A model generated the notes under the pieces. It had not been told where the DNA came from. It searched no databases and saw nothing but the letters and a program-made list of their open reading frames with translations. This document shows, piece by piece, positions 11,141-36,064 of a stretch of 64,000 nucleotides of DNA (position 1 is its first letter; every line of letters starts with the position of its first letter). Source of the stretch: Eledone cirrhosa (lineage: Eukaryota); NCBI GenBank assembly GCA_964016885.1, contig OZ024740.1:271808001-271872000 (forward strand), in the 5' to 3' direction. The position numbers were made by a program, and so were the translations under genes.

Positions 11141-11223
11141 TTAAAAGCAGGCACGTCTTCGTCAAATCTAACTGCATCTTCCTTGAGGATCACCAAGTTT
11201 TCATTAATGGCAATAACTTTCAG
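11141..11223 (-). CDS. XYLB: Xylulose kinase exon 2 (LKVIAINENLVILKEDAVRFDEDVPAF(K))
   Basis: 83 nt bounded by tttctag and gtaagt, phase 0/2. Confidence 0.95.
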
Positions 11224-12429
11224 CTAGAAAGATATTATTATTAAACAGGGAAAATAAAAATGGTACAAACAACAAAGTGTTGGTCAAAATGCATTACTCT
11301 TATTTTGTTTCTTTCACTGCAATTCTAGTTTCAGTCCTTGTGAATGCTGACTGACCAATCATCTTTCCTGAAGGAATTCAAATATAATAAGAATCAGTAA
11401 TGAACTTTAAAAAAAAATCCCTGTGAGCCTCATAATGTCTCATTTTTCTACTAATTTCATAGCATCAACCCTTTAGCATTTACATTACTCTACATATGCT
11501 ATTATATTTTCACAGTAAAGGCTTTACCTCACATAATACTGAATCTATAAGATTTTGATGTTATTTATTTTGAGAACAATACCTTAACGTCAGTATGAGC
11601 GGTTGGTTATGGTTGGTTTGAACAAAGAGAGGTGAGAGAATTCTGGCCAGATACAGCCAGTTTAAATTAATTATATTATGATTAGGTCAGGTTTCTGCCT
11701 GCTACTGGTATCATGTAATAGTACAACCAGCATCCTGTTTGAGTGGTTGGCAACCAAACTGGCTCCCCCGCAAGATCCTGGTCTGGTGAGGAGGGTAAGT
11801 AGAACTCCAGCAGATCAAAAAACAAGAGCTGTTAAAAGGACAGATGAATTCCTCAGAGTTAATGGCCATCTACTCCAACTATAGGTAAAAATAGCCTTAC
11901 CATATTGCAATTGGCCAAGAGTGGTGAGTATGGCTACACCCCTTGACATAACCAAAACCAAACAGAAAGTAGTGGGGGGGGGGTCAACCAGGGTGGGGTT
12001 CCTCCAACATGAGTGAGAAGGCCCTGGATTGGATTGGAAATTAATGATATAAAAATTTCCTTTTGAAAAAAATAAAAAAATAAAAAAAATAAAAAAATAA
12101 AACTTGTGTAAAACTGCCAGAATATCTGCTAGGTTGAATATATAGCTGACCATACTGTGTGTAATTAAAACTTGATAATAATATTGGTGCTACTATTTTA
12201 TCTTTTACTTCTAGTTGATTAAAAGTGAGTTTGGATTATTGATGAACATGTGAAACCATTGTATCAAAGAGAGATTACCAATGCTAGTGCAATTATGGCA
12301 TCTTTTGCCTAATATTATCAAAAGTACTATTTGTTGGTCAGTCCAATAGTTTGATCTCAGTTACTCACTTTAACCCTTTAGCATTTAAACTGGCCATATC
12401 CATCCAGAATTCTCTCACTTCTTTTATAT

Positions 12430-14385
12430 AATGAATAAGAGTGGGCTGAGGACCGAACCCTGATGAGCTCCTACTTGTATCTGGAATTCCTCACTAAACT
12501 CCATTCCTACTCTCACTTTACTGACAGCTCCTCTGTACATAGCTTGCACTGTCCTCACAAACCATTCCTCTACACCTAGTTTCCTTAGGGACCACCAGAT
12601 GACTGATCGGGGGTACCCTATTAAAGGCCTTCTCTAGGTCAACAAAAGCTAAGTATAGTGGCTTATTCTTCTCTAAGAACCTCTCTTGTAGTTGTCTCAC
12701 TTAGAAGAGGGCTTCTGTTGTACTATTCCCAGGCACAAAACCAAACTGCATCTCATCTAATTTGATTTTTTTTCTTATTAGTTGTGCTAATATTCTTTCT
12801 GTCACTTTCATAACCTGATCCATCAGTTTTATGGCCCTATAATTGTTTCTCTTCGGAGCATACCCTTTACCTTTGTAGCAATCTATAAGAATACTGCTGC
12901 ACCAGTCTTTGGGTATGACTCACCATATATAGCTTGATTGACTATGCGTGCAATCAGTTTAGTTCCTACTTCTCCTGATGCCTTCAGCATCTCAGCAACT
13001 ATCCCTGATGGTCCAGCGACCTTACAACTTTTCATTTCCTTAATTGCCTCTTAGACCCTATAGTCATCAACCTCAATAGCTCGTCCCTCTGTTGAGTCAA
13101 TTGGGGGTAGTTTCTCTCTCTCCCATTCATCAGTCTCTCATAATGACATTTCCAGGCCTCCTTTTTCTGAGCATCAGTGACACTAAGTGCACCAGCATCA
13201 TTTTGGACACACTTATTTCCAACAACATCCTGATTTACACTGCCTTGCAATGCGGAACACTTCATGTCTCTGATCCTCTCGTCGCAGAACATTGGCAAAC
13301 CACCTACTCTCAGCTTCCCGGCATGCTAAGTATACCTGACATCTAGTCTCTCTTTTAGCGGCTGAGTATCAGTCTCTACTCCCCACCCCCATTTTTCCAA
13401 TCCTTCCATACTTGTCTTTTGTCTTTAATGGCTCTATCTACCATGCTGTTCCACCACCAAGTAACCTTCTGTCTGGTTGGAGCTTTGCTCCAGCCACAAG
13501 TCTCTTCAGTTGCTTGCAGTAAGTTGTTACGTAAGAACTTTCAGTTATCTTCTATGTCATACAATTCTAATTCATCTTCTTTCTCGTCATACACATCTTG
13601 AAGGGCTTTCCTAAATTTATATTTAAGTGAAAGGTCTTTTAGCTTCCAGACCTTCCTGTGTGTCTCATTCTGTCTCAAGCTTATTGAGATATCACTAACG
13701 ACTAACCTCTGCTGTGGAGTACATTCTTCCCCAGGGTATGCCTTAGCATTCGAAACCATCTGTCTGTCTCAAAGCCTAACTAGCAAGAAGTCAATCTGGC
13801 TCATGTGCTCACCTGATTGGTAGGTTATTAGATGGTTGGCAGGTTTCCTGAAGTTAGTGTTGCAAATGGTTAGATCACTTGCATCACAAAATTCAAAAAG
13901 CCTCACTCCTTCATTTCTTGAGCCATAACCATGACCACCATGTACTCCAGTGTACCTGCTAGTATAACTAGGTCTCTGTCCTTTGTCACTATGGTTGTCT
14001 CTAGAAGTTTCTCATAAAAGCAGTCCTTCTCTTCTTTACCTAGGCCCACTTGGGGAGCATAGGTAGAGATAATTGTCAGCAGTCTATTGCCTACAACTAA
14101 TCTAATCTTAATTATTCTATTACTTACTCTAACAACCTCTATTGTCTTGTTGATCCACTTCTCGGCCAGTAAAATGCCTATCCCACCTAACCCATCATCA
14201 TTTCCTACTCAGGGAAGCTTATAGCTAAGCTGTTTCCTGCGATTAATCTTGCTGAGACACCTCTCGATCTCACCTCTTGCATGCAGCACACATCCACATG
14301 TCTTCTCTCTAGCATATCCACTATCTCACCAGATCTACCTCTCAGGGTGCCAACATTAAGTGTAGCAAACCTGAGATGTGTCATC
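12430..14385 (-). mobile_element. Decayed RTE-clade LINE (APE plus N-terminal part of RT)
   Basis: Fragments read LAFVDLEKAFNRVP, HQGSVLSP and PGEECTPQQRLVVSD, with many frameshifts. Confidence 0.85.
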
Positions 14386-14489
14386 TTTTGTTGATTTTTT
14401 CCTTTTCTGTGAAGAACATATTTAGAATCATTATCCTCATTATTACTGTTGTGTGATGAGGAAATTTGATAGAAGTGTCAGTGATAGGC

Positions 14490-15123
14490 ACATTTTTCAA
14501 ATGCAGGTAAGATTTATAGAGGTAGTTGATAGCTTCCTATGCCTAGGTGATCTGATTAGCAAGGGAGGAGGATGCTCCAAGGCCATAGTATCTAGAACAA
14601 GGACAAGATGGAAGAAGTTTAGAGAGCTGCTTCCTCTGTTGACAATGAAGGGTCTCTCCCTATGAACGAAAGGTTTGTTATATGATGCCTGTGTGAGATG
14701 CGCAATGCTGCATGGTAGTGAGACATGGGCAGCAACTGCGGACGATATGCGATAACTGGAGAGAAATGAAGCAACCATGCTCCGATGGATGTGCAATATC
14801 AATGTGCGTGAACGACCAAGCATAGACGAGTTGAGGGATAAACTGTAGTATGTGGGAGAGAAGACTGCGTTGGTATAGCCATGTGATGTGCATGGAAGAT
14901 GATAGCTGGGTGAAGAAGTGCCAAGAAATCCCGGTGGAAGAAAGACGCAGTAGAGGAAGACCATGAAAAACATGGGTGGAGGTAGTGAGAGCTGACCTCA
15001 GATTGCTGAAGCTCACAGAGGAGTTGACGAGGGACCGTCTTGAATGGAGAGATGCGTGCTGAAGAGGACCTGTCCCACCTTTGCAAGCAGGGAAAAACGG
15101 ACGTAAAATGATGATGATGATGA
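14490..15123 (+). mobile_element. RTE LINE 3' end with (GAT)n tail
   Basis: EVVDSFLCLGDLIS...WKKFRELLPLL, HGSETW and RGRP motifs. Ends ggacgtaaaatgatgatgatg. Confidence 0.85.
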
Positions 15124-15173
15124 TATACATATACATGTATACATACACACACATATATATATATATATACACT

Positions 15174-15206
<33 letters not shown>

Positions 15207-16075
15207 TAGGGTGGCCCTTAGCAATAGGTAATTTTCCAAAAGTTAAAATTTTGCTGCAATCAACAAAAACACAGGGTGTGCAACATTTCAACTGAATTGA
15301 ACAACTGTTAAGTGACCCTCAAACGCCTTGAAGTTGGAACATAGAATACGCAACAATTAATTCTGTTCAAAAGCGGTATACTGTTCTCTATCTTGATCAT
15401 TTTCTTTTTTCTTCTTAGAGAAAATGGACACATCCAGTCAACACGAGCAAATGTTTAAAAACGTACTGAAATAAATTTACCAATAGTTAATTTGAAAAAT
15501 TCCTGAAATAGCATGAAAAACTTTTAAAATATTAGGTTTTCTTAATAAAGCACACAACTTCTATAAGAGAAACGCATTTTTATTTACAACAATAATTACT
15601 ATAGAATCAAAAACATAATGTGAACACTGAACACTGAATATTGAACATTATTTTTGCATAAGAGAGGATTTAGTGGCAGTTGGGTATGGTTTACAGTTTT
15701 CAGTAACGATCTGTAAAACAAATTGTTTCTCACTTTCATCTTTTGTGAGAATGTACTTGTAATCCTGAATGAGTTTGACACCTCTTTCTGCTCTGCAACA
15801 TCATTCACAACAACTGTCTTCTCAAGTTTTTCAAATCCATTTTTGTAACCAGGATCATCCTGCCATGTTGAAGTGTCTTTGTCGAAGAAATCGGTGCTGA
15901 TAGAAAATCTTGTGAAGAAAATGTTTGTACCGGGAGTTACAAAAGACAAAAACTCGATGTTTGTAAAGGAAGAAAAATCATTTTGGTGCAGAATATACCT
16001 CTTCAGTTGATTATTTTCTTGTTCCTCTTCTTTACCTTTGTCTGCTTCCAGCATAACTTGAGCAATATTTGCCTT
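15207..16075 (-). mobile_element. DNA transposon remnant, probably hATm-type, with transposase C-terminus
   Basis: Terminus TAGGGTGG at ~15207. Frameshifted VVVNDVAE-(R)GVKLIQDY..LTKDE..KQFVLQ motif. A second similar terminus lies at ~16322. Confidence 0.6.
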
Positions 16076-17624
16076 AACCTCTCCTTGCTCTCCTTTACTC
16101 CTATCTATGTACTTGTTTATATACAAATACAATGAGAAAAGGGGAGCAAGGAGAAATATGAAAGCAAGGATAGTAAGGAGAGTATATATATATATATACA
16201 TATCATATATATATACATATCATATATATATACATATCATATATATATATATATATATATATTACTCAATACCGAGTACTCATTTCTCTCAGCTGTCAAC
16301 CACATATGGATATATGTATATTAGGGTGGGCCATAGCTATAGGTAATTTTCAGAAAGTTAAAATTTTGCTGCTCTCACAGCGAAAAAATAGGTGTTTGTC
16401 CTATACCTGCACTCTGTCCCCAGCTTTGCAAGTTGCCTTCCCCATTATATTTATTGTCACTTATCCTTCTAATACCAAGAATAAGTCTGAACAAGTTTTT
16501 AATTTAAGAGAAAATTATATAAGAGATAAAAGATTTTTATCTGAAAAAATGACTTTCCAGGTGAAAACTTCAAAATTTCACAGTCGGTGAGGGTTGCCTT
16601 GCAGTTGTCCGTTTGAGCTAAAGTTTTGCATAGATTGTTTTTTTTTTGTTAATTGGAATGACTTTGGTAGGATTTGAACTAGGAACATAAAGAGCCAGAA
16701 CAAGTACCACAAAGAATTTTCTTTGGGCTGTTTCTGCCAATCAACTACCCTCAATCTGCCAAATGATGGTAATGGTTTCTGATTCAGACACAAGACTAAC
16801 AACTGGTGCTTTATTTTATTGAACCTGTAAGGATGAAAACGAAAGCTAACCTCAGCAGGATTTGAACTCAAATGTATAGGACCATAACTCGTGCTGTAAA
16901 GTATGTTGTCCGACAATATCCAGATACTGACAATGCACCCTCCTCTGCCAAATAATAATAATACTTTTGTCAGTTAGTTTAATTATGTCATCACTCTGGC
17001 TCTGGAGGTACCAAAGTGTGAAAAGTTTGTGAAGTGATAGATAGTCATTTAAGATATTTTTTCAAAAATTACGTAGATCCAAATTATCATGACAAACAGG
17101 TCAATAAAGTTTAACTGTTCCTCATCTTCCCCTCTCTCTATTCCGAAGTTATTAATCCTTCAACACCAACTGAAATTTTATCTCTCTCTCTCTCCAGCAA
17201 ATAATTTTGTCCAAAACATTAGGCTTTCCTTCTTTACAGCAAACTGATAAGAAACTCTCAGGAGAGCTGGTCAGCAAAAGGTCTTCAGAGAAGAAACCTC
17301 CCTCAAGCAAGTGTTTCAGCCCTTAGCTTCTTACACTCTAAAGGGACCAGAACACATCCAGGTCATGACTCCTGGGTACCCTATTCCATTGCTTGAATCA
17401 CTGTAGAATTAGACTAATTGATATTGGTGTTAAGATTTTTGACATTACTCTTCTCAACAAATTTGTAGTGCTAGCGATGCCCATAACTGATCAAGTCTGT
17501 GAATGTATTGATCTATCTTCTGATAACTCCTGGAAGCAGGTTAGTCATTGTATTTGGTGGCTCAATTGTCACATTCAGCTCAGTGAGTAATCAGTCACTG
17601 TGGAGTGTCATAGAATTAGACAGT

Positions 17625-18030
17625 CCTCCCCCTCCTCCTGTCCGTTATGCCCACTGGCATGCAGGGCAGCAACAAAGGTTCTCCATTCCTGTCTGTCCTG
17701 GGCCAGTTTCCGGATAGTACCTAATGCGTATTGCCAAGTCTTCATTTATCTCACAATTGTTCTTTGGCCTTCCTTGTTTTCACTTGCTTTCTGATGTCCA
17801 GTGAAGGGCTGTTCTTGGGATGCTATCTTGCTCTCTTCTGAGAACATGCCCTAGCCACTTCCATCTTTTGAGGATTCTTGATATATTCTCCTGTTGGCAT
17901 CCACTAAGCAATTCCTCATTAGAGATATTTTCAGGACAAAAAATTCTAAGAATTCTCTGTGTGAAAGACCAACAATTTGGTCAGGTCATTCTCTGCCATT
18001 CTCCATCATTCTGAGCTGTACAGAAGCAGA
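17625..18030 (-). mobile_element. RTE-type LINE 3' fragment
   Basis: Minus strand shows RWKWLGHVLR and ALHWT-like residues. Confidence 0.65.
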
Positions 18031-18919
18031 CAGTATGACCAAAGTCAGGTCAAATGGAATGGACATCTAAGTATTTGAAGTAAGAGTGCTGTTTGGCAGG
18101 GTAGTGCAATACTCATCAACCTTGTAATTAAGAGAGTATTTACTAATGGTCTAATTGAGTGCCAAGAAGTCCTAAGTTAGACATTGACAATGCTGATGAG
18201 CTTGTGCTTGTCTTACACTAGATGAGTTTGCTTCCATATTCTGATTGGAAAGTCAGTGCAGTCAAAACTAAGTTGTGGCTTTACAAAAGTCAAGCAGCAG
18301 AAAGTGGAAAAGGTTTTTACATAGGCACAACCTTCAAACCATTTCACAAATCAAAAAATGATACTCGAAGGATATATTAATATAGATCATGCTTCATTTG
18401 TAAAACTGACACTCAGGCTATGCTTCCTAAGGATCAAACTCTGCTTATAAACATTTTTTTTTTTCAAGCACTGATACACTCAAATAGTCTCTACTTGTGA
18501 AAATGTGTGCTTATAAACTGAACATGTCTACCTTTTAAGGGTGCTTTTACCTCCTTAACTGAGTGCAGGTATGTGACCCAATTGCTATAAAATAACTCAT
18601 GCAAACCAAACACACTATTTTTGTATATTTAACCATTCATATTCTCCAAAAACCATTATTCATGCTGCCTGGATTGGTAATGCTGTTGATTTGCTTTTAA
18701 GACATGACTCTACGTTATCAAGACTTTACATTGGCCACAGTTGGGACCAGGCTTTCACCTGCTGAGGCCCTAAGCTATACAAAATTTGAGACCCTGAGCA
18801 TGGGTACATCATCCTTTACATTAATTCTATATTCTCAGCATTTCAAAGTCTGATCATTTGGTTATGTACATAATTATTATTTTATGTATTAATGTTAATG
18901 ATAAAGAATATATATATAT

Positions 18920-19128
18920 ATCATCACCGTTTTACGTCCGTTCTTCCATGCTAGCATGTGTTAGACGGGTTGTCCTGTTGTGGGCAGTGCCTATCATCTC
19001 ATTTCTACAGCTGAGTAAACTGGAGCAATGTGAAATAAAGTGTCTTGCTCAAGGAAACAACACATCACCCGGTTCGAGTATTGAACTCACAACAATTGCA
19101 AGCCCAATGCTCTAACCACTAAGCCACA
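18920..19128 (-). mobile_element. Family B SINE (internally deleted)
   Basis: Matches the head and the ggacgtaaaacggtgatgat tail of 63008-63444. Confidence 0.8.
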
Positions 19129-19365
19129 TACATACATACAAAGAGGGTGTGGTAAGATACCAGGTGGACCATAACGCACCAGAGTACTCAATACTGAGGA
19201 TGGGATGAGAAGGAAGGATGACAGGAGAGTGTGAGTGATGGGTTACACATGGAAGTGAGTGATAGATGCCAGCTGAGTTTCGTGCAGGAGAGAAAGTAAT
19301 GGTTAGTGGTAGAGGGTGACGGTAATGAATATGAACATAAATTATGGATATCATATCAGGTGGAT

Positions 19366-19567
19366 ATACAAGGGTCGCCTGAAAAGTTCATAGACTGACT
19401 AAGATACTCTCATGGAATGACCAAATGAGCTTTATTTTTCAACATAGTCGTTGGAAAGAAACAATGCAGTTATTAATAAGAAGAGTTGAAATTAATGCAT
19501 GCAAGATTTTACAGCTCTAGCACCACTCCTTCATAGTCAGCCTATGAATTTTTCAGTCCCTCATATA
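19366..19567. mobile_element. Tc1/mariner-like MITE
   Basis: tacaaggg..tgaaaagttcatag / ctatgaatttttcagtccctcata. A related copy lies at ~43957-44140. Confidence 0.65.
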
Positions 19568-22500
19568 AGCCTATATGTAGCTAAGTCATATTAACAGATT
19601 CTGTTGATATTTAGAAACATATTTCATCATAATCTTCTATATGTGATTTTGGTGATTAAAACATCATCACGCTGCATGAGTTCCAAAGATCAAAGAAAAG
19701 TTATGAATAAACCAATGAAATCCATCTTTGGTAATCCAACAATGACAAGAAATTAACTTCATTTTAATTCAATATAATTGCTGTATATGCTGGTGTACAA
19801 GTCTCACCCATTTTGCATTCAACCGTCTTGATTTTTAGGTCCAGTAGCTAAGTCACAAGTTGGCTTTTACATATTGAGATTTTTTTTTTTTAATGGAAAG
19901 AGGTGTGACTTATACACAAGTATATATGATATACTCAATATTAAAACAAAGTTATTTCCAGCTTGATAACCTTACCACACACTTCAGTCTGATAGTTTTA
20001 ATCTTCAACCTGTTATAATCACTGTAGGTGTTGCTATAGCCCAACATGTTCAGATCCCACTAACATTATTCACACCCCTTTGTACCACACCTCTTTTTTA
20101 GAGCATGTGCTTGGGGGTAAAATTGCTTCTTCAAAAACATACCTGGTGAATTCTGCTGTTTTTAGTCATAACCAAAGTTTTGTATTGATATTCAAACAAA
20201 CTTCATTTAAACTTGAGAAAAAAAACTGTTGCTAAGATAATTGTTAAGATACCCTTTAAAAATATCTTGCTTTGAACCATGGAGATATATATAACAGAGC
20301 CTATCTGTTCACACATACCTACCCCACCAGTAAAGTGCATTAGTTAAAGGTTGATTATTATTGTAGGAAGATGTTAATAGAAGATCAAGCTCTCAATGTA
20401 GAGAACCTTCTAGAGATTCTGTAGTGCTAGTCTTTACAATAAAAATATTTAAGCAGTTTAATGTTGTCTTGTGAAATGCTCAAGTCGCAAAAACGTGAAA
20501 ACAGGCTGGAAAGTGTTCCCTAATACTAGATGTCCTTTAGCAAACGCTGTAGTTCACTAGCATTATACTGAGACGTTTCTCTGGATAGAAGAATAGGATA
20601 CCAGTCTATCCTAGACCTGAACTTAGCGATATAAGCTAACAAAATATCTTAAATTGATTTTATACAGTTGTCAATGTAAGCACCATTGACTGTTCCTAGC
20701 CTGTATTATAGTTAGCTTTCAAATTGTAGTAATCCACCTAAGTGTTTTAGCTACAGATGTAACACAGTGCTAGTGTCAACAAGATACCTCTCCAAATAGT
20801 TATTTTGTTATCTACCAATTTGGTAATCCAAATTTCCTTTTTTAGTGCTGGTGTCTTACATTATTTCATTTATGAAAGCCAAAGAAAACATTTGGAGATA
20901 AAGCTCTAGGTATTAACAAATTTCTCTAATACTTCTGTTATGATAAAATGTTGGCATAATGGCTGATACTAGGGGAAAAAAACATGCCCACTCCTAAAAT
21001 CCTCAGTCAAATCTTAAGCAAAACACTAGCCAGAAACACCAAGATGCATAGCAAATTCTTCAAACATATGTGAAGACCAAGAAATGGAGAAGGATGTTAG
21101 TTTTACAAACTTATATCATAATGATGGTCGCAATGGTAGACAAATTCTTCAAACATTTGTGAAGATTAAGACAGAGATGGATGTTACTGTTTTACAAACT
21201 TATATCACCATGATGGTGGTAATGGTAGACAAAAGCAATATTTTAAATAAAGAAAAAGAACATTGTCAGACAAGAAAAATATGCATGGATTTTGTTCAAA
21301 TTATTTACCTGAGAAATAAAACATATAAAACAAAACAGCAAGCTAGTATTTTCAACATTTCTTTTTAATGAAATATCATGAAATCAATGTAATTATTTAA
21401 TGGAAAGTATCTTTTTTTTAAGTTTATTTATTAATTTAGAATTTCTTTTTATCTTTCTCTCATTCTATTTCATTCACTTTTCCTATCTTTCTCTCTCACT
21501 CTCACTCTTTTCATCTTACATATCAAATGGAGAAAGACTCATAACAATGTCTACCTCTCTATTTTTTAATAAAACAGTTTCTTTGTATTCAATTCTTGTC
21601 TTTATATATTTGGTATGTTTTTTGGTGTGATGTATTTTTCCCCTTCTATTTTCATCTTTTTCTTGTTTGTCAGTAGTTATATTTTCATTGAACACAATGT
21701 TTTACAAATAAACATGAACACAAGAGAAAAGAAAATTAAACAAAAATATACATATGGAATAAAATAAAAGAACTGGGTTGTATTTTTTTCAAATATTTGT
21801 ACCAATTTTTTCCCTTGTTTTTCTTTTTTTTAAAAGATGAATACTTATTGAAAAGGCATCCTATTGCACTAAATTTAATAAAATGGTCTTAATCCTTTAT
21901 CCTTTTTGCTGTCTAATTCTTAATAAAGAAAGCTGTGCAAATTATTATTTCCGAGTTGAAAACTAAAAGGTGCCATATACTGACAGGTAGTTTAATCTCT
22001 AACACTGGCAACAAGGCCACAAATTACGGGGATGGGGTAGGGGCACAGTTAATTAAATCAGTACTTAACTGGTACTTGATTTTTATCAACCCTAGAAGGA
22101 TGAAAGGCAAAAATCGACCCTGGCACAATTTGAACTCAGTATGTAAAGAGATGTCATTAAATACCCCAAGGAATTTAGTTGTGCACTCTTATCAAATCTG
22201 CCACTTCACTGCCCTACTGAGAGATATCATTTTTTTTTTTCAAATCAGAAACTATTTGAAATAAAAAGAAATTATATTAATTCATTTTTTTTTAACATCA
22301 CAAAAATGTTCTAATTTTTTCTTAAAAGAAAATAAAAAATACTTAACATAAAAGTTACCAAAACCAGAGAATGGTGACTCTAAGAAAGAAATTACACAAA
22401 AGCTTTTTTTTTCATCTAATTACATTCAACACCCAACTATCTGCAGGTAGTGAAAGAACAGGATACAATAATAATTTTATCTGAAGCATCAATAATGCTG

Positions 22501-26200: not shown

Positions 26201-29200
26201 ACTTAAAAAATGGCTGTGCCTGTTCTGCATTCAGTTTCTTGACAGCATTGAAAAGCATCTGAACAATTGCCAACGCCAAAGAGTCGTTCCATCGACAGAG
26301 ACTAAAAATTAAATTGCATGTTTGCCGTACATTAATATGGTCTTTAATTTGATTGTAAAGGAATGGAAATCCTTTGCCACCAATGATGCTGTTATAGTCT
26401 TTTTCAGAGAGGCGTAACTGATTGTCTTCTCCTCGAGACCTCTCCACTAGCTGTGCAATCAGTGCTATCATTTTATCCAATGCCAGAGGTCTGTGCTTGT
26501 CTTCAGGCATTGCAATAACATCATCTTCTTCGTCGTCATCTGACAATATTTCAACGTAATTTTCTTGAGCTTTCTGACCCATATAGAAATTAACAATTGC
26601 TGATATAGCGTTGTTATTAATTAAGAAAAAACACTCTTCATCTCCCATTTTGGCAAATTCTAGAAGAAAACTGAAATATTCCGTTAGGTACTTGCTGTGA
26701 GGTCGAACACCTTGCTCAAGAATTGCTAACATACGTCTGATAAATTTGGTAGCACATGTCTGACCACTGAGGCTGTTGGATTTGGTTTGGTCATCATTTG
26801 GATTCCCTGAGGTTAAAAGGTCATACTGGGCACTTTTAAGTTGTGTAATCACATGAACTAATAACCTTTGGAACATCTGGCGCACCATTTGGTTAGGACA
26901 TTTAATTAATATCTGCTGAGGCCACCAATCACATTCTGCCATATGCTCCAGAAACCATTCACATGCAGCTTGGCAGGAATTAAACTGCTTTGTTAGAAGT
27001 TCAATCCACTGAAGCATAGTAGGTTTTTCTTTGGCATGAATATGTGTTTCTAAGACAAATGACGCACTCAACTGTGCAACCATCAGAGGCACTTTTCTTG
27101 GGTCATCTCGAGGTAATGTCGTCTGAATGTAACCACATAACTGTAGCATGAATCCAAAATAAGTGTGCTCGAATATATTTTTATCTTGTAGAAACTGCAT
27201 GTTGTCTTGCCATATCCAGTCAGCAAGTTCCTTTGACAAATCAAAGTTGAATTTTTGTGGTGGTTCTGATGCAGCATCAGATTCTTCATTAGGCACTTCT
27301 TTCTTCTTCGGAGAACACCGTTCATAAAATAACATATAGGCACTGTTGGTCTTCTCAAAAGAAAAATCCATGAATTTGTCAGTAACAGAATCATACGTTT
27401 TACTCGTCATTTCACCCCCGAAACACTCTGCGGCTATTTGGCTAGGATCAAATGGTTTCACTTCAGCATCATTAAATAGGTACCACTTGTCAAATCCAGT
27501 CTTAGATTGACTAATACGATCTCTGATGAAACTATAGTAGTGGCCTCCATCGGCAGTTCCCGTGTGCACAGTTACTCCAATCAGTTCATATTCATGACAA
27601 TCAGATTCATCTTTTGTGAACGTATCGTTCTTGTCATCTTCATCTTGTAATTTATCTGGTCCCATTAAGTTCACTTCCATGTACTGAGACATATCCAAGC
27701 GCAACGGAAAAGAAAAATGTGTATTTACTTTTTCTTTCATCATAGTGACCATATTGAAAGTGTATCGCATGGTATTAAAACACAAGATCTTGGGAAGTTT
27801 TCTGAAACATGCCCGCTTTTCAGCACGGACTTTCTTTTGACATTTCGAGCAAGTATACATATTGTCTCCTTCTAGCATATCTTTTACTGTAACTTCATCT
27901 AATGAGTCATATAGATTTTTCATGTCAGTAACTTGACAACGGACAGTATAAAACTCTTCAACTGTGCGACTAACATGTGGACAATCGAGAGAAACAACAT
28001 TATTAGTTAGTACACCTCCAAATAAACTTTTCACAAGTTTTTTCATATCTGCAGACATTTCTTCTAGTTTTGTTATTAAATCAGTAAAGAACTCAGTCAT
28101 ATCTTTTTGTTCTCCTGTATTTAGAGGTTGTTTGTCCATGGTGTATGTCTTGCAGAAGCTCTTTGGGTTATAGGCTTTTCTTTCACTTTCTTGAAGGTAA
28201 GCAAATATTTTTTGAAGTTCAATCAGTGTTGCTTCATGCTTTGTCTGGTCTGTGCATTTTGCTTGTAAAACTGACTGCCTCGCTTGTGGAATCATGTACA
28301 AATGCTGCATACAAGTAGCCATATAACATGTAGCTCCAAGGTTAGTCAAACCTACATAGCCACATTTTGATCTTCCATCTTCATGTGGCCAATAATCCCA
28401 TGGGTAGGGAACATGTGAGTCTTTACTATGCTGCTTCATCATTTTCTCATGTAGAATAGCATAGTTTTCAACACTACCCTTTACCATTTCTACTAGCAAG
28501 TCATAAGCAGCAGCTCGAGATGCTTGACTTTTACACTTGGGCAACTTTCTGTTTACTGGTGATGGCAATGCAAAGAGACACCAAAAGATGTCTTCCAGAA
28601 ATACTCTACCATTTTCAGATGTTTTGAATGGGGGTTCATGTTTTAAAATAGCAGTACAAAGATTTAAAAGACCAATCAGGGCATCATCCTCCTCATAGCC
28701 ATTCCTGGTTTCATAAAAAGAGCGAGAGATTATATGATTAGCAATTTCTTTACATAACATGTCTAAATTCACAAGACTGTCAGATTTAGTATTTGCATCT
28801 TCTTTTGAAATATTATCAACAAATCTGCATACCAACCAGAAGTAGTCACGGCATCCAGGACCGTATGTCTCTTTCTTTTCCTCTTGTAGGTAGGCATCAT
28901 TTACTCGAGGTTTTATTAATAAAGCTTCTGGCAGAAATGACAGCATACTAGACAATATGGGTAACAGAAATGCATAACCATTTCTGTTTTCGGAAGTCTT
29001 TCCCAAGCATAATTGATAAAGTCCTGTACAAACTTCTTTGCGGACACAGGGTTCTGGAGCTTCCAGTGTTAATCTTTTCAACCAAGAATTAAAATTTGGA
29101 GATGAACAAAATGCATCCTTTAGTTCTTCACATGAATATGCCCAAGATACGAGAAAATTTAAAGCATAATGAACAACTTCCGACCTCCCCCAAGTTCCTG

Positions 29201-32200
29201 TATTGCATAAATTGTTTTCTATTGGTATAGCAGCATCAAACAAAATTTGCATGATGATTTGTAAGTCTGTATTGACATTCAGCATTGACAGAATAGTTTG
29301 GTTGAGACGAGGTACAACAATTTTATCACAATTACTTTTTTGACGTTTCATTTTCTTACGGGGTAATTCATAATTTTCAAAAAGGTCATCATGGCCTGCT
29401 TCGGCATCTGACCTCTCCACAGAAAACTGACTTATTAGACGTAGTAAATAAGCCAAGCATTCTTGATTCCACTGGTTCCAAGTTTCATCTGCTTTAGCTT
29501 GCAGTGTGCTTGATTTAAATATATCAACTAAATGGCTGAGTCCTCCTTTTGAAATGAACTGTTTGGTCCAGACTTCTTCAGGAACTTCTGGACCTTCCAT
29601 AACTTGATCGCTCTCGGCATCCCCTCCACCTCCAGATCGAGAAATTGATTTTTTTTTACTTTTAGGATTTTTCGACAATGCTTCAACAATCTGTAAGGAA
29701 TACATTAAACGGTGCGGTCTCTGTGGGTCTAGCAGACGATTCCAGTCAATAGGCTCTTCAGATGGAGTCTCTTCTTTGTAGGGAGTGGATGGCATAATAC
29801 TTCGGAAGCCGTATAACATCTCAGGACTTGTTGGTAATAACATCAATAATTCCCACACTCGGCGAGAAAATATTTTTGCTTTACTTTGTAAATTCCATCT
29901 TTCTTTACTTTCTAAATCAGCCGTTGAAAAGCTAAGGTTACTAAGTTGCTCCAGCAAAGTAAGAAGACGCTCAAAGCTAGGCTCTTGCAGAAGAATCATC
30001 ATGGGTAGCTGTTCAGGACTAGGAGATGGCAGGCATGACGATGGTAATGTTCCATCCATCTTTCTCTGGGGTCTACTTGCACCCACAGAAACAAAAACAA
30101 GTTGCAAATCCTTAAACTGCATTTCACTTAAAGTTTTCTCATCATTGTCTACAGTAAGCTCCTGCCCAAGAGTAATCATCCGTATTGGCCCATCTCCTAG
30201 CATAGCGCCAAGTATAGGAGACAACATCGAATTACCATGGTTACTAGAGGACTGTTGACGTTGAAGTTGTTGCTGTTTCTGGAGAGCTTCCCACCAACGA
30301 GCAACTTCAGCACGTAATTCTGCAATGAGATCAGTAGACAACATGTCTAAGGGAGTCTTTTCAGAGATACCAGCTGGTTGTAAGAGAATTCGGATTGGGC
30401 TTGACTGTTTCTCATGAACATTACATTGGTGACTCACAATACCATGGCCATCAATTTGCCAGTTTCTGAGGTGATAAGCATATCTTTTTCGAAAACCTTC
30501 CAAGTGATTTTTTAACAAAATCAAACCTCTTTGAATAACAAGAAGATTCATGTCGGGATTTTCTTCAACTTTCTGAGAGGCAGTTAAAAGACTGTCCATG
30601 CATCGACGAATAAATTCATCTTCTTTTTCTAAAAGTCCATTTCCATAATTGATGTAATAGTTGTTCAAGAACTGGATGGCTGTGATACTGACATCTGTAT
30701 TCAAAGCCCGTAGAGCAATTTGCCACAGCTGGTCCATGCCGCACACTTGGTCCTCAGACAATTGATTATCTATAGAAGCATTTGCAATTCTTGCCAAGTG
30801 TGATAACTGTTGGAAAAGATTCAAACCAATCATACTCATTGATTCAGGTTTAAGCTGAGGCATTTTCTCAAGAAATATGTGCTTGAATGTTTCCAAACAC
30901 ATGGCATGGTGATGCTCTTTGCTCTTGGCTTGATTAAGAAACCAGCTCAAGCATTCATCAGAACATTCTGGATCTAAAGCAAGACAAGCCCACAAAGTAT
31001 CCACTTGTTCTTGACTAAGACGGAAACTATCTGGTGATCCTGGAGCACTGAACACACCAGTTAAAAATAGAAGCCTCACTTTAATTTGTTCTTTGTGACT
31101 GTAAAGGGATGTACTTTTCTGCAGATCACATTTTCGGCTCTCAGTGTAGTGGATGAGATCGCTAAAAAAATGAGACATCATGTTCAGTTCTTTTTCTGCC
31201 CACATAGTCACAGCATGATTGTCAGAACCACTCCGGTACTGTTGAAAAGAGCTAAAGATTTTGGGCAGAAGACGCAGAGATACCACTACAGACCGGTGCG
31301 CAGCCACATTTTCAATGCATGCTTCAATGAACTTGATTTTAATGCGCCTATCTGTTGAAAAGCACACTAAAGTGTAAAGAGCTTTCTCTGCTTCAACAAC
31401 CAAGCCATCAGGTAGCAAACATGCCATGTCATCTTGCACAAGATCCCAGAGAAGTGTGTTCCCTTTCTTGCAGACATCATCAAATGTAAAATCAGTACAA
31501 GATGAAACAGAAAGTTCTTTCTGAGATGGTCTTGGATGAATGACATGAGGCATGTGGGTATGATACATTGATGCCATACTGGCGAGATGTTGTTGCATTT
31601 GGTGTGTATTGAAATGAGGATGTGCATTGATCTGAGCTAATTCCTCATCACTGAGAACTTCTTCCCCATCAAAATCTGCCATGTTTTTTTCTGATTTCGT
31701 ACTCATTCTAGAACTGTGGCAGCTACCTTCAGGACTCAATATGTCCTCAATATAGTCACTCTGGATATGTCCATGTGGGTGAGCTTGCATATGTTGGATA
31801 TAATTAGCACAGTCAAACATTTCGGCTTCATCAGCACGGTTCTCAAACTCCTGAGCAGATTGGGAGGAAGCCACACCTTGAATACTGCTGTCAGCACTGT
31901 CGTGGTTGGCTAATGTGGACGGTCTGGCTTCAGAATCATGAGAATCTCGTGAATCCTGCGACAAGTTACCAGGATCTGAAATAGCCATTTTTTTTTCACT
32001 GTCTCCACCAACTTCCAAGTCTTTACAGTGACCAGTAATACCATCACTATCACCACGAGCTTCAAGAGAAACCGAACCAGGATGCAAGCTTTGTTGAATT
32101 CTGTTCTGATTTTCTGACCTCTGTAACCCTGTCCGTATACGATAGCCTTTCTTACCTTGTCGCCGAAGAACAAGACAAGCAGGTTGTTTAAGAAGTCCTT

Positions 32201-34550
32201 GCTGTTGGAGCTGTATATGATGTTCTTGCAGTGCATGTTGAGTCTCGTAACGAAGTTTTGTCTCGTGCATTAGCTTTGCTCTTCTAGATTCATTAGCATC
32301 AAAATCTGAGCTGTCCTCACTCTCACCATGACAAGAATGTTTCATATGTACCATTTTAGTATGCTTTAGAATGTCATCATCAGATTCTTCATATTCTGAT
32401 TCCATTTCTTCCTCTTCCTCTTCTTCTACTTCTTCCTCCTCCTCCTCTTCTTCTTCTTCCTCCTCCTCTTCTTCTTCTTCCTCTTCTTCATCATCATCAT
32501 CTTCATCAGAACATGTACCTTGCTCTGTATCACGGTAAGCTTGAGCATTTCGGTTTCTCTGGGGTCTTGGTTGACATTTTAATGGTACTGGCTGTCTTTT
32601 GACACCCCGACGTTTTTGCATTCCATGTTTCAGTGAAGTGCATATTTGACCTTCTCCAGCACTAGAACCACTGCACTCTACATCACTTTCACTACCACTA
32701 CTGCCACCTCCCACCTGGTTAGGGGCCACAAACTCTTGGCCAAGGCCAGTAAGCTGCCGATGAGTACCTTCATCCATGTCACTTTCATCACTGTTGTCGC
32801 TGTTAGCCGAAAACTGCTCAGAGCTTTTCTGCTGTTTCTCAGAACAGTCATCATGCTTTTTGGAATGAGAAATCTGATGTCGTGTTGAGCCAGGTTTATT
32901 CTCAGCCTTGCTCAACTCCTTTTGATCATCCTCTGATGGTAACTCCTCATTTTTGTTATCAACCATTCCAATTCTTTTGTTGCTGTCCATCTCAGGGACT
33001 TTGTCTGTTTCCCCCTCAGAAAGTTGTAGGCTTTCACTGCTACTCATTTCAGGCTTGCTTGATTTACCATGCTCCAATTCCTCTTCTTCTTGTTCAATAG
33101 CAGCCACAATGCTCTGTGGCTGGTCAGCTGGTTGTTGTTGTTGGTGATGGACGGCAGCATTATGGCTCTGTGATGTAACACAAGTACTCCAGATGCACTT
33201 GAGGAGTGCAGATGCTAAGTATAAAGTAGATTCTGTGTGTGCAGAGGGATCAAGAGCAGATACTAAGTTAGATAAATGCTGAACCAATTGTAGTTCTAAA
33301 TTTTTTATAAGTGGAATCAATATATCATAAACTTGCTTACTGCAATGTTTCATCTGACTGGCAGTCCATATACAGTCGATATGTTCATTCGTGATTTTTC
33401 CTTCAACGGCAAGAAAATTTAAAATAATCTGGCTCTGTTTAATGATTTCCACATGCAAGTTTGGACCAAAAATATGCTCAATAATCTTATTTTCTAAAAG
33501 CCATTTAGCTAAATGATTTCCTACATTTTCTGCATCTACTAAAGTATCATTATTGCAGCATTCATTATACAAATCAATCTGACGGTTAATCTGAGCTATA
33601 CCCGCCAGTCGAATTGTTAGAGTTGAACAAGTAAAATATTTAAAGGCTAAATCCAAACCTTCTTTGTCATACGTAAAATGAGTATCCAATGGTTCTTTTA
33701 CAGCTGCCCACATGAGGTCTGTCATGTTCCGGGTGCCGGCCATTCGTAGGTCTTTATCGGATAATTTACACATATAACGAATAACAGCAGTTCGTAATGG
33801 CACAATACATTGCATCACAGTAGCGATATTCATCCAAAGACGAAGATTTGCGATAATATTGATGAGAGTATGAGCCACTGTGAATGGGAGCGTGTCCGGT
33901 GTAGCTTTTTCGAAGCATTGTTGCAGTGCCTGGACACCGTTACTATCACAGAAAAAACAAACATTGCGCAAGAGATACAGAGGAACTTCAGAATCGGAGA
34001 TTTCACAATAATTATTCAAAGCTCGAGTTTCCTGCTGAGACAGTTCTTCTAGAGATGAATGAACGACATGTTTGTAAGCCACATACGAGGGGAAGTTCAT
34101 GAGAAAGACTTTCGTAACTACCTGAAGTAATTGGTCTTTTTCTTCCATGGCCCAAACTTCGGATTCATCGAGTTCTTCTGCATCATTTTTTTCCGTTTCT
34201 TCCGATGACAAGCCATCAATTGATGATTTGTTCTTGTCAGAAATATCAGAAACAGCATCTTCGGAACAATGATCACGCTTTTCTTGTTTTTCTTTTTCCT
34301 TAGCGTAGTCATCAGGCAGAGTCTGAATGTGCCTAATCGCAACAGTCAACACGATTTGAACAATATTGTTCAATCGTTCAAAGTTCTTAAATTCTTTGTA
34401 GCAGCACATACATTGCTTCTGAGGCCATATATTTACGTATTGAATCACAGACAGAATCTCATTCTTTCCCAGACGAAGACCACCACCGCTGTGAAGCCGC
34501 TCATCGTGGCTATCGAATAAGGACAACAGGCCAGAGCATACATCACACAT
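23274..34550 (-). CDS. USP34: Ubiquitin carboxyl-terminal hydrolase 34, single coding exon, 3758 aa
   Basis: Starts MCDVCSGLL..GGGLRL..INIWPQKQCMCCYKEFK-like, resembling the USP34 N-terminus. Cys box GLTNLGATCYM, His box VHTGTADGGHYYSFIRD, WYLFND, and conserved C-terminal blocks (NIAFNYILADH). No stop or intron over 11,277 nt. The ORF-track start at 34571 is a TTG; the first ATG is at 34550. Confidence 0.96.
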   Translation of the reverse strand: MCDVCSGLLSLFDSHDERLHSGGGLRLGKNEILSVIQYVNIWPQKQCMCCYKEFKNFERLNNIVQIVLTVAIRHIQTLPDDYAKEKEKQEKRDHCSEDAVSDISDKNKSSIDGLSSEETEKNDAEELDESEVWAMEEKDQLLQVVTKVFLMNFPSYVAYKHVVHSSLEELSQQETRALNNYCEISDSEVPLYLLRNVCFFCDSNGVQALQQCFEKATPDTLPFTVAHTLINIIANLRLWMNIATVMQCIVPLRTAVIRYMCKLSDKDLRMAGTRNMTDLMWAAVKEPLDTHFTYDKEGLDLAFKYFTCSTLTIRLAGIAQINRQIDLYNECCNNDTLVDAENVGNHLAKWLLENKIIEHIFGPNLHVEIIKQSQIILNFLAVEGKITNEHIDCIWTASQMKHCSKQVYDILIPLIKNLELQLVQHLSNLVSALDPSAHTESTLYLASALLKCIWSTCVTSQSHNAAVHHQQQQPADQPQSIVAAIEQEEEELEHGKSSKPEMSSSESLQLSEGETDKVPEMDSNKRIGMVDNKNEELPSEDDQKELSKAENKPGSTRHQISHSKKHDDCSEKQQKSSEQFSANSDNSDESDMDEGTHRQLTGLGQEFVAPNQVGGGSSGSESDVECSGSSAGEGQICTSLKHGMQKRRGVKRQPVPLKCQPRPQRNRNAQAYRDTEQGTCSDEDDDDEEEEEEEEEEEEEEEEEEEEVEEEEEEEMESEYEESDDDILKHTKMVHMKHSCHGESEDSSDFDANESRRAKLMHETKLRYETQHALQEHHIQLQQQGLLKQPACLVLRRQGKKGYRIRTGLQRSENQNRIQQSLHPGSVSLEARGDSDGITGHCKDLEVGGDSEKKMAISDPGNLSQDSRDSHDSEARPSTLANHDSADSSIQGVASSQSAQEFENRADEAEMFDCANYIQHMQAHPHGHIQSDYIEDILSPEGSCHSSRMSTKSEKNMADFDGEEVLSDEELAQINAHPHFNTHQMQQHLASMASMYHTHMPHVIHPRPSQKELSVSSCTDFTFDDVCKKGNTLLWDLVQDDMACLLPDGLVVEAEKALYTLVCFSTDRRIKIKFIEACIENVAAHRSVVVSLRLLPKIFSSFQQYRSGSDNHAVTMWAEKELNMMSHFFSDLIHYTESRKCDLQKSTSLYSHKEQIKVRLLFLTGVFSAPGSPDSFRLSQEQVDTLWACLALDPECSDECLSWFLNQAKSKEHHHAMCLETFKHIFLEKMPQLKPESMSMIGLNLFQQLSHLARIANASIDNQLSEDQVCGMDQLWQIALRALNTDVSITAIQFLNNYYINYGNGLLEKEDEFIRRCMDSLLTASQKVEENPDMNLLVIQRGLILLKNHLEGFRKRYAYHLRNWQIDGHGIVSHQCNVHEKQSSPIRILLQPAGISEKTPLDMLSTDLIAELRAEVARWWEALQKQQQLQRQQSSSNHGNSMLSPILGAMLGDGPIRMITLGQELTVDNDEKTLSEMQFKDLQLVFVSVGASRPQRKMDGTLPSSCLPSPSPEQLPMMILLQEPSFERLLTLLEQLSNLSFSTADLESKERWNLQSKAKIFSRRVWELLMLLPTSPEMLYGFRSIMPSTPYKEETPSEEPIDWNRLLDPQRPHRLMYSLQIVEALSKNPKSKKKSISRSGGGGDAESDQVMEGPEVPEEVWTKQFISKGGLSHLVDIFKSSTLQAKADETWNQWNQECLAYLLRLISQFSVERSDAEAGHDDLFENYELPRKKMKRQKSNCDKIVVPRLNQTILSMLNVNTDLQIIMQILFDAAIPIENNLCNTGTWGRSEVVHYALNFLVSWAYSCEELKDAFCSSPNFNSWLKRLTLEAPEPCVRKEVCTGLYQLCLGKTSENRNGYAFLLPILSSMLSFLPEALLIKPRVNDAYLQEEKKETYGPGCRDYFWLVCRFVDNISKEDANTKSDSLVNLDMLCKEIANHIISRSFYETRNGYEEDDALIGLLNLCTAILKHEPPFKTSENGRVFLEDIFWCLFALPSPVNRKLPKCKSQASRAAAYDLLVEMVKGSVENYAILHEKMMKQHSKDSHVPYPWDYWPHEDGRSKCGYVGLTNLGATCYMATCMQHLYMIPQARQSVLQAKCTDQTKHEATLIELQKIFAYLQESERKAYNPKSFCKTYTMDKQPLNTGEQKDMTEFFTDLITKLEEMSADMKKLVKSLFGGVLTNNVVSLDCPHVSRTVEEFYTVRCQVTDMKNLYDSLDEVTVKDMLEGDNMYTCSKCQKKVRAEKRACFRKLPKILCFNTMRYTFNMVTMMKEKVNTHFSFPLRLDMSQYMEVNLMGPDKLQDEDDKNDTFTKDESDCHEYELIGVTVHTGTADGGHYYSFIRDRISQSKTGFDKWYLFNDAEVKPFDPSQIAAECFGGEMTSKTYDSVTDKFMDFSFEKTNSAYMLFYERCSPKKKEVPNEESDAASEPPQKFNFDLSKELADWIWQDNMQFLQDKNIFEHTYFGFMLQLCGYIQTTLPRDDPRKVPLMVAQLSASFVLETHIHAKEKPTMLQWIELLTKQFNSCQAACEWFLEHMAECDWWPQQILIKCPNQMVRQMFQRLLVHVITQLKSAQYDLLTSGNPNDDQTKSNSLSGQTCATKFIRRMLAILEQGVRPHSKYLTEYFSFLLEFAKMGDEECFFLINNNAISAIVNFYMGQKAQENYVEILSDDDEEDDVIAMPEDKHRPLALDKMIALIAQLVERSRGEDNQLRLSEKDYNSIIGGKGFPFLYNQIKDHINVRQTCNLIFSLCRWNDSLALAIVQMLFNAVKKLNAEQAQPFFKLMSLLVEFIGGPPGMPPFLQYILQRFWELTECCPHQCLEWLSNLVTRNKIANAWVLQQMDNWVEGYLIAHGNVRVRNAASFLLVSLVPSLNFRQAFRTARSILSPHKELLLSSDALAVLHQIYEHLLSLLSRARLYVDPQVHGTSKLVCYFAVVTYCLISKKEKLMFGRYFADLWQLFQPKLSEPQISMHHNKQAMLMFWYQVCLDCPENVKLIVTNTHVCKNIAFNYILADHDDQEVVMFNRCMLPAYYGLLRICCQQSRSFTRQLAQHQNILWAFKNISPYPAQYTAAVEELFKMMRVMSMKHQDSSEEELKAINNFRRTTIQMYLQHLDARSGWQTLINSFKILVDSTDDRLLIIYQQGLQMITEAFFTLHVMYHEATACHVTGDIVELLALLLPVLKVARHYLERKNPSTLHVKECIFNWNERAEFVRKLLTLLNSYTPPEIRQSCFEVLKEMVLTFQKDIIPTIVTILRDSHKAFQDTNLPVSVGPYFPRRGQKTICSKSNVRPPRPQFQMLLHSNQLEASRNVDDCYDAALSDFFTQYHLFIDLLCRVAVNQHNLTKDLINLSAMVAYEGVPLHSLYFAKLWNEIYHLEQFDKSCIKVLCNSYYFIEYVNAVLLDERMSLNSPIIYQFFCNFFPKVHQQVLNDQGQSLLDSLVASITAEKSATENVKTDQELFSICQRINGDLRAMLLIFSVQPPKQLSSLLTDSLQHIHRVCCDYQQRQRSENEDTSVAVSSTSVVSLSTTAITTTATTTNTTTAASSTVSTAVTVAPNSSKTSSSSPLSSPLPTSSAVTSSPTTSINPGINIDSSITTTETLTEVPVTAEKLTRSEHLNSSEADESMETPTKRQRFSNDPDEMETDNNAEEVSPSFQIASESSLSGTGGIGSGAGQSGSGRLSSEEGKETDTKCEQHSPNKETASATTSGTTTSTTTTTSTTSTAISGARSIHREKPNFLDTVIKHIEHLYGFLGLK

Positions 34551-34595
34551 TCTCGGAATCTTGGGAAACAACGCAAGGAATTCTTGCTGAATAAA

Positions 34596-34613
34596 TTATA
34601 AGCGACTCGGCAT
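34596..34613 (-). promoter_or_regulatory. Short upstream ORF (MPSRL*) in the putative USP34 5' leader
   Basis: ATG CCG AGT CGC TTA TAA, in frame with the main ORF and stopping 45 nt before its ATG. Confidence 0.45.
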
Positions 34614-34700
34614 GACAGAATCACAAAATCGAATCGAACGTGAGAAGAAGTTTTTGTTTTCCATACCTTCTTTTTTTTTTTTTTTCAAGCATTCAACAAT

Positions 34701-34710
34701 CCGCCATATT
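34701..34710 (-). promoter_or_regulatory. YY1-type motif near a putative USP34 transcription start
   Basis: ccgccatatt (minus strand AATATGGCGG), 150 nt upstream of the ATG. Confidence 0.45.
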
Positions 34711-35750
34711 TGTTTTTAGACGTTTTCTTTCACCGGGAAGAGAATTGGGAGATAAATTTAAACCAGAGTGACCTCCCTTGACAGAAACAAATTTTCTTCA
34801 ATTTCATTTGTGCAAAATTTGCTACAAACAACTTTATACAGTAACTTTCTTCCTCGCAGTATTTAGAGAAAATGGCAATGTTTTAAGCTTAATCCGATAA
34901 ACGTTGAGAAAGTAAACTAAAACTGTTACATCAGAACAAAAAACACAAACGGAAATTCGAATGTTTTTGTTTACCTCTGCTTCTCCTACCTCATATACTC
35001 AATTTAAAGTTTTTTTTTATCTCCGACAATAGAGATTTCACCCTCTGTTCTAAACCCCAACGTGTTTATTTCCCTTTTATTCTAATTTTATCATCGTTTT
35101 AATTTCTTTCATAGTAAGCACGATTTTAAGCCTATTGTCTTTATACTGACTTTTAGGTATTTCTAATAGTAACTCATTTTATCGATCACAAAGAAATGAA
35201 ATACAAAGAAAGTTATACTTGAACTAAATTTAGCATTTAGTCTAATGGCTGGCACTGCAATAAAATATTAATTATTAATACCATACTAATGTTATAGTTT
35301 TTTATTTATTTTGTCAACGTCTAAAATTCTCCGTAACAAAATACAATATATCGAACTCGAAAACTTTTTAGTGATTGTTTTTTTTTTATATTGTTTTAAA
35401 TAAAATAATTTTTAATCGATATATGGAAGACTATTTTTGGAATTATTTATAGGTTTAATAGCAGAAATTTAACATCAGAAATTTAACATCATCGTACTTT
35501 TGACGAATTTCAAGACACCAATAATTAAAAAAATTATTATGAATAAAAATGTTAGTATTAAGCAAAAGTTTTACAGAGGGAAGTAGAAGTATACATCGTT
35601 ATGGAAGTAACAAGAACCTTGTTAGAGACTTTGTAAAACTCAACGCAATTTAAAGCTTTATTATCATTCAGCTTTAGTTGTGAAAAGGAGGATGAAAATT
35701 TAAATAAATAAATGGAAAATAAAACTTTAAGAAATATGTTAGTGCCTTAC

Positions 35751-35813
35751 TTGTTGAGTACTGAAGTCAAATCCAAGAAATATTCGGTCGCTGCAAATGT
35801 TAGTGCTTGACAT
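35751..35813 (-). CDS. XYLB: Xylulose kinase exon 1 (MSSTNICSDRIFLGFDFSTQQ)
   Basis: ATG, the conserved LG.DFSTQQ motif, then a gtaagg donor. 63 nt, phase 0. Confidence 0.95.
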
Positions 35814-36064
35814 GATTGCAATGTCAAGGTTATAATTTGCTGTCAAGGCTTCGTAATATATCTTTTCAGCTCTGTTATCTCTGACGTTTTCATTCATATC
35901 TTTTTTCAAGAGTGTTGAATTTTTTTTTCTCTGTCAATTATTTCTTTTACTAATACAATTTATTGTACATTCCGAGAAGAATTTTGTAAATTTTATTTGA
36001 ATTTATTTTGGGGTTTCACAATTTTAAAAAACTTATCTTCGTATAATAGTTTGAATTGAAAATC

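Follow-up and report, generated by a model that had tools for sequence, protein, structure and literature searches.

How can a gene with a coding sequence of 11.3 kb occupy the first intron of another gene, be read from the same strand as its host, and leave both able to produce mature transcripts? This question is raised by a stretch of 64,000 nucleotides of the Eledone cirrhosa genome (assembly GCA_964016885.1, contig OZ024740.1, positions 271,808,001 to 271,872,000), hereafter called the window, with coordinates counted from its first letter. In the window, USP34 lies wholly inside intron 1 of the xylulose kinase gene XYLB, in the same orientation, and the host is spliced across it. An earlier note, drawn from the letters of the window without database searches, had described this nesting and suggested that the inner gene was a retrocopy. 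Here we followed up these claims by homology searches, comparison with assembled contigs of sequencing runs and analysis of base composition, and we consider it likely that the nested USP34 is a reverse-transcribed mRNA copy that inserted behind XYLB exon 1 and replaced a many-exon parent.

USP34 lies inside the first intron of XYLB

XYLB was traced with the xylulose kinase of Octopus vulgaris (P0242), 19 ordered pieces of which align from position 35813 to approximately 24.8 kb before the window start, and all 16 genome-wide matches of this protein fall at this locus. The coding part of exon 1 (35813-35751, minus strand; MSSTNICSDRIFLGFDFSTQQ) comprises 21 codons and is followed by a GTAAGG donor, while a TTCTAG acceptor precedes exon 2 (11223-11141), and the two exons join in phase 0 across an intron of 24,527 nt. 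Introns 1-8 are all GT-AG and keep the frame, with introns 2-8 being 727-4,281 nt long, and one of the exons is 93% identical to XYLB of O. bimaculoides. Exon 1 is single-copy in the genome, and neither a remnant near exon 2 nor any other genomic copy of it was found. It encodes an FDFSTQQ-type motif that is present in 9 of the 10 homologues printed, and thus appears to be an old coding exon rather than a newly recruited one. Single XYLB exons proved too short for Pfam or PDB, exon 2 matching xylulose kinase 4bc2 only at E 1, and a scan with profile PF02782 missed XYLB entirely, so that family scans of this genome should be taken as lower bounds.

Public XYLB models from O. bimaculoides (P0122) and Sepia pharaonis (P0254) lack exon 1, as would be expected if a long or occupied first intron is beyond the reach of gene predictors. 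The cuttlefish model P0254 reaches exon 2 out of repeat-like sequence, which hints at the same intron there. Further along the host gene, exon 7 (approximately 1.4 kb before the window start) reads RAIERLTG where both altered positions are aromatic in all 10 homologues printed, a change that may signal relaxed constraint on the enzyme in this species. Intron 6 holds a LINE endonuclease fragment and an extensive tract of (CAC)n/(CCA)n simple repeats (790-1596 and 2067-2932).

Splicing across the nest was seen in assembled contigs of four runs (X22, X1, X5 and X12, from four organisms) aligned to exon 2. None of the listed runs is on record as RNA; we took these four as RNA because their contigs are spliced and the genome is without a processed XYLB copy. 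In each run, a single contig of 1.8-2.3 kb extends over exon 2, flanked by the 3' end of exon 1 and by exon 3. The 30 letters past 11223 in the X22 contig are identical to positions 35751-35780, a sequence unique within the window, and an X1 record of 1,838 nt (depth 24.8) aligns at its positions 23-124 to exon 1, ending exactly at 35751, and at positions 125-208 to exon 2. No contig with an alternative first exon occurred in the four runs; since contigs drop rare forms, this result demonstrates the presence of the exon 1 form, not the absence of others. Another X1 contig (226 nt, depth 3.5, at 35868-36097), just upstream of exon 1, is possibly a divergent or longer 5' transcript.

Behind exon 1 and on the same strand, a very long USP34 frame (34595-23274) has its first ATG at 34550, which is 1,201 nt downstream of the XYLB donor, and its stop at 23274. 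The coding sequence is a single intron-free frame of 11,277 nt, corresponding to 3,758 aa. Judged from the predicted protein, this frame is a USP34 orthologue: the best matches along its length are USP34/puf proteins, with mollusc USP34 at up to 84% over aa 140-460 and 78% over aa 2900-3500, UCH and DUF3517 domains are present, and the catalytic domain aligns with the human USP34 structure 7w3r (E 1e-188) with Cys, His and Asp motifs retained. No cephalopod USP34 was among the 120 matches listed in each of two protein searches, though cephalopod XYLB was found, and none was among 10 protein clusters looked up. A comparison of gene neighbours via adjacent accessions failed because these matches contained no cephalopod USP34 record.

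Contigs of X22 and X1 cover the USP34 frame except for its poly-Glu repeat. The evidence for a start of its own consists of two pieces from two studies, 34696-35016 in X1 and 34751-34987 in X22, both of which begin at record position 1, approximately 0.75 kb downstream of the XYLB donor; a contig of a further run, X23, continues past this point. On the 3' side, X22 pieces cover 22629-32397, 22082-22568 and 21482-22111, the limit lying 50 nt before AATAAATAAA at 21432. These limits weakly hint at a separate start near 35000, a 3' end near 21410 and a transcript of approximately 13.6 kb, given that contigs cannot show ends. Contig depth is low at 35010-35676 (0.87 in X22, 2.55 in X1) and zero in X22 at 20336-21002, and was not used as evidence. 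The frame is almost uncovered in run X14, for which record filtering is a possible cause. Relatives differ from the frame by 2.9-3.3%, with the frame intact and contigs over it in X22 and X1, and an X23 piece runs for 8,450 nt without gaps inside it at 2.9% difference.

The same layout exists in a relative. A 4,465-nt contig of X23, from a different organism, covers 32515-35242 and 35560-35905 and thereby joins the 5' part of USP34 to XYLB exon 1. We read this run as genomic DNA from its size and its coverage of the intron. The arrangement is thus shared, and on the 5' side it is no assembly quirk. Several claims of the earlier note are borne out by these results, namely the same-strand nesting, the in-phase join of exons 1 and 2 across 24.5 kb and, as the spliced junction spans the whole unit, the need for XYLB transcripts to cross all of USP34. 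The note had asked for reads joining 35751 to 11223; contigs with this junction occur in all four runs, and neither of the findings it had named as fatal, another XYLB first exon downstream of USP34 or a lack of spanning reads, was encountered in them. Its statement that USP34 begins 1.2 kb after exon 1 holds for the ATG and not for the contig starts. The features of the locus are collected in Table 1.

Table 1 Features of the XYLB/USP34 locus in the window
Feature	Position	Strand	Evidence
XYLB exon 1, coding part, phase-0 donor; 5' untranslated region (UTR) to at least 35852	35751-35813	-	Alignment; X1 record aligned at 35751-35852
XYLB intron 1, containing the entire USP34 unit	11224-35750	-	GT-AG; spliced junction in four of four runs
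XYLB exon 2	11141-11223	-	P0242 alignment; spliced contigs
XYLB exon 3	9202-9271	-	P0242 alignment; matches contig ends running past 11140
XYLB exon 4	6185-6265	-	P0242 alignment
XYLB exon 5	4652-4738	-	P0242 alignment
XYLB exon 6; 13 further pieces before the window start	2893-2985	-	P0242 alignment
CpG-undepleted domain spanning both starts plus the initial 1 kb of the USP34 frame	33501-36250		Observed/expected 0.82-1.50 in 500-nt windows
Likely USP34 5' UTR, unspliced in the contigs listed; start probably near 35000	34551-35016	-	X1 and X22 contig starts
USP34 coding sequence, 3,758 aa	23274-34550	-	Single frame; single copy
GAA/GAG repeat encoding the poly-Glu tract; contigs break there	32398-32514	-	Frame and contig alignment
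USP catalytic domain, aa 2066-2409	27324-28355	-	Alignment with human USP34 at the Cys box, His box and Asp motif
Likely USP34 3' UTR, approximately 1.85 kb, with AATAAATAAA (21432-21423) and an A8 run (21419-21412) at its end	21412-23273	-	X22 pieces; hexamers
Rest of intron 1, 10.2 kb, 40% repeats common to the surrounding 264 kb	11224-21400		Repeat comparison

Origin of the intron-free USP34

Human USP34 is reported to have 80 exons (PMC13432289). To place introns in other relatives of the gene, 126 short homologues were aligned, which are most likely frames called on genomic DNA and are counted as proteins, not as independent species. Exactly at N322, 21 of them stop, and all 12 of those printed then continue with V, which would correspond to a GT donor read through; on this basis the truncated homologues are best understood as exons running into introns. 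Another 10 of the 126 stop at H1002 and smaller groups at aa 185-187, 236, 257, 368 and 406, and the window frame is continuous at every one of these break sites. USP34 regions aa 151-400, 2056-2409 and 3001-3500 each gave one orthologous match in the assembly, and searches with these three regions found no many-exon parent there, while one of them did detect exon-sized paralogue pieces at 31-63% identity.

Genome-wide intron loss was considered as a cause and rejected. A whole domain in one frame was present in none of 18 HECT loci, none of 6 BEACH loci, 1 of 12 PI3/PI4-kinase loci and 1 of 19 SNF2 loci, that is, in only 2 of 55 control loci (match rows were grouped into loci by hand), and other host-type USP genes are mostly in pieces.

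Both starts lie in one CpG-undepleted domain (33501-36250), within which the segment 34001-36000 has an observed/expected CpG ratio of 1.07 and ranks third among 131 2-kb windows (median 0.35 across the 262 kb measured). Since methylation in octopus is reported to mark gene bodies and to be sparse at promoters (PMC9476566), this domain is probably an unmethylated promoter zone common to XYLB and USP34. CpG-island promoters are reportedly used by 9 of 10 mammalian orphan retrogenes (PMC4772013).

Retroposition followed by loss of the parent appears to be the simplest account. In an ancestor that was an octopod or older, a USP34 mRNA would have been reverse-transcribed and inserted immediately downstream of XYLB exon 1, would have gained its own start within the promoter domain of XYLB, and the retrocopy would have taken over as the many-exon parent was lost. 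Active LINEs have been reported in octopus (PMC12988792). Two further suggestions of the earlier note, a retrocopy-like structure and a position beside an active promoter, agree with the single frame where homologues show introns and with the CpG-undepleted domain over both starts. It gave too little weight to the missing parent and to the 11.3-kb length of the retroposed frame.

Several points weigh against this origin. A clear poly(A) tail was not found, the A8 run lying in AT-rich DNA, and a target-site duplication was not searched for. The copy is more than ten times as long as the median mammalian retrocopy, reported as 500-750 nt (1,100 nt in sloth; PMC13251070). The relocation of USP34 from an ancestral position is putative, and the USP34 start site depends on contig ends from only two studies. 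The 120 matches listed in each of the two protein searches include no cephalopod USP34, and so none from squid or nautilus. Finally, donor, acceptor and AATAAA motifs in the USP34 frame are not depleted relative to synonymous shuffles (P 0.18-0.92), and there is therefore no sequence sign of adaptation to intronic life.

Coexistence and possible coupling of the two genes

Mature XYLB and USP34 RNA contigs occur in the same bulk runs (X22 and X1). As U1 protects introns from premature polyadenylation, its binding at the exon 1 donor, which is consensus-like, would be a likely protection for XYLB transcripts that read past the USP34 poly(A) site, and this could happen often enough to yield full mRNA. 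Two tandem starts approximately 0.8 kb apart would fire into the same DNA, and USP34, being intron-free, would offer no true splice sites competing with the donor or acceptor of XYLB. If some XYLB transcripts are lost at the promoter or the poly(A) site of USP34, this would likely be tolerated, not used as a switch.

The best-surviving rival holds that the two genes are functionally coupled, USP34 transcription or its poly(A) site truncating XYLB transcripts in a reciprocal regulation such as that of mouse H13/Mcts2. The geometry is that of the mouse locus, at which nested transcription is reported to drive intronic polyadenylation of the host (PMC13309782), and five AATAAA hexamers lie between the XYLB donor and the USP34 start, with five more in the USP34 3' UTR. 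However, the number of upstream hexamers does not exceed that expected from dinucleotide shuffling (mean 2.6, P 0.12), and full-length XYLB contigs occur in all four runs, with USP34 contigs in X22 and X1, the two of these four that were also aligned to USP34, although bulk samples allow exclusion at the level of cells. Polymerases travelling in the same direction are, moreover, reported to push each other on in vitro (PMC13309782). At H13/Mcts2 the host is reportedly stopped by nested transcription itself, even with the upstream poly(A) site deleted (PMC13309782), and the nested promoter is therefore as likely a conflict point as the USP34 poly(A) site. By analogy with the mouse locus, intronic polyadenylation could plausibly couple the two genes, and this can hold on top of retrogene replacement; for the present pair of genes we consider it unlikely.

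Alternative histories of the locus

In place of retroposition, USP34 introns might have been lost where they stood by repeated recombination with cDNA, with XYLB exon 1 moved upstream by a local rearrangement. Such a history would suit a copy that carries no tail or duplication marks (with the same limit on the latter), and coleoid genomes are reported to be heavily rearranged (PMC12988792). Nevertheless, it would require the loss of every coding intron over 11.3 kb together with the movement of a 63-nt exon and its promoter, exon 1 is single-copy and has left no remnant near exon 2, and same-strand nesting of a many-exon gene is, according to the Drosophila study, a disfavoured state (PMC5174743). 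We regard this history as improbable and prefer replacement by a retrocopy.

Lower still we place the view that both genes use one promoter, the USP34 mRNA arising from the XYLB start without splicing or by alternative splicing, and the choice between splicing and polyadenylation picking the protein. It draws on the distance of less than 1 kb between the starts, on their common CpG domain and on reports of chimeric host-retrocopy transcripts (PMC4772013), but it is very improbable given that the X1 exon 1 record passes unbroken into exon 2, that USP34 contigs start at 35016 in one study and at 34987 in another, and that no joint between 35751 and a USP34 leader was among the 15 of 42 joints listed. 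An unspliced transcript would also carry, ahead of the USP34 ATG, a 24-codon upstream frame and approximately 1.2 kb of AT-rich leader.

That the assembly misplaced USP34 between two XYLB exons is scarcely credible: the 10 kb from the USP34 end to exon 2, 40% of them repeats, are bridged by no independent contig, but in another organism an independent contig links exon 1 with the 5' end of USP34 in matching order, no second copy of exon 1 exists in the genome, and the 264 kb read contain zero N.

Comparison with known nested genes and retrogenes

That nested genes are more often antisense to their hosts, as the earlier note had stated, is overstated in that same-strand nesting is not rare. Same-strand pairs account for 28.7% of nestings in D. 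melanogaster, with 71.5% of their inner genes intronless (PMC5174743), and in mammals the two orientations are described as 'broadly similar', same-strand nesting and location in a first intron being common (PMC11694760). Same-strand nesting of intronless genes is thus a known class, and the orientation is not the surprise. The prevalence of intronless genes among the same-strand inner genes of Drosophila has been read as selection against mis-splicing, a pattern that USP34 fits; these inner genes are described as small, young and tissue-specific, whereas USP34 is giant, old and dosage-sensitive in humans (PMC5174743; pLI 1.0, PMC13432289).

The closest parallel to the arrangement of USP34 and XYLB is H13/Mcts2 of mouse. 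Mcts2, a small gene, lies on the same strand as H13. It is described as a retrogene with its own CpG-rich promoter in a host intron, the host being transcribed through it (PMC13309782), a layout that USP34 probably shares. For Mcts2, the ancestral gene Mcts1 is named, the retrogene occupies intron 4 of its host, and imprinting divides the work between alleles (PMC13309782), whereas USP34 spans approximately 13.6 kb in intron 1, is the sole copy and has no known imprinting.

Orphan retrogenes, whose parents have been lost, form a second group for comparison, and the human ones listed are small. With 25 human cases reported (PMC3548309), they resemble USP34, on our reading of the latter, in having a single coding exon, a lost parent and a promoter beside that of a neighbour or a CpG island (PMC3548309, PMC4772013, PMC5803294). 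The coding exon of amphioxus SYCP1 measures approximately 3.2 kb, in contrast to 11.3 kb in USP34, and SYCP1 stands head-to-head with its neighbour while USP34 is nested in tandem (PMC5803294). Median lengths of mammalian retrocopies are given as 0.5-1.1 kb (PMC13251070). The class of arrangement is already known, and the novel point is size, namely a coding retrocopy of 11.3 kb that is the sole copy and, on our reading, replaced its parent. By title, and with most subscription papers and cephalopod genome supplements outside the search, we found no published report of the USP34/XYLB locus or of retrogene replacement in a cephalopod. The size range of retrogene replacement would thereby extend to 11.3 kb of coding sequence, from a gene whose human counterpart has 80 exons. 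The locus also offers a natural, non-imprinted test in which one poly(A) signal ends one transcript and is passed by another on the same strand.

Neighbouring gene and other single-frame genes

On the plus strand, a many-exon C2H2 zinc-finger gene, which we take to be ZNF236-like, occupies 60992-61700 and continues beyond 64000, running away from the locus. A head-to-head promoter with this gene was considered and is unsupported, as the finger exons begin near 61 kb and the first exon of the gene was not found.

The two control loci with a whole domain in a single frame are ATR and RAD54, both of which are many-exon genes in vertebrates. ATR forms one uninterrupted frame of 2,687 aa (C26:9661394-9669457, minus strand), whose kinase end has no second copy in this genome, and RAD54 forms one of 739 aa (C6:17347718-17349937, minus strand). 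Nesting of ATR in a same-strand host found no support when its neighbourhood was examined. These frames suggest that octopod genomes hold a small class of such genes that could be surveyed. A tentative and, on balance, doubtful extension is that full-length intron-free retrocopies, far above the sizes described for retrogene replacements, took the place of very large genome-maintenance genes in octopods more than once (USP34, 11.3 kb; ATR, 8.1 kb; RAD54, 2.2 kb), and that the poly(A) signal at USP34/XYLB is obeyed or ignored depending on the promoter, of the two lying 0.8 kb apart, from which the polymerase set out.

A Helitron Rep/helicase frame of 2,230 aa (C2:253895885-253902577, plus strand) carries a USP-type (UCH) protease domain at its end. 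Frames of 2,230-2,245 aa with the same pattern of matches occur at several loci on separate contigs, one copy of which was checked.

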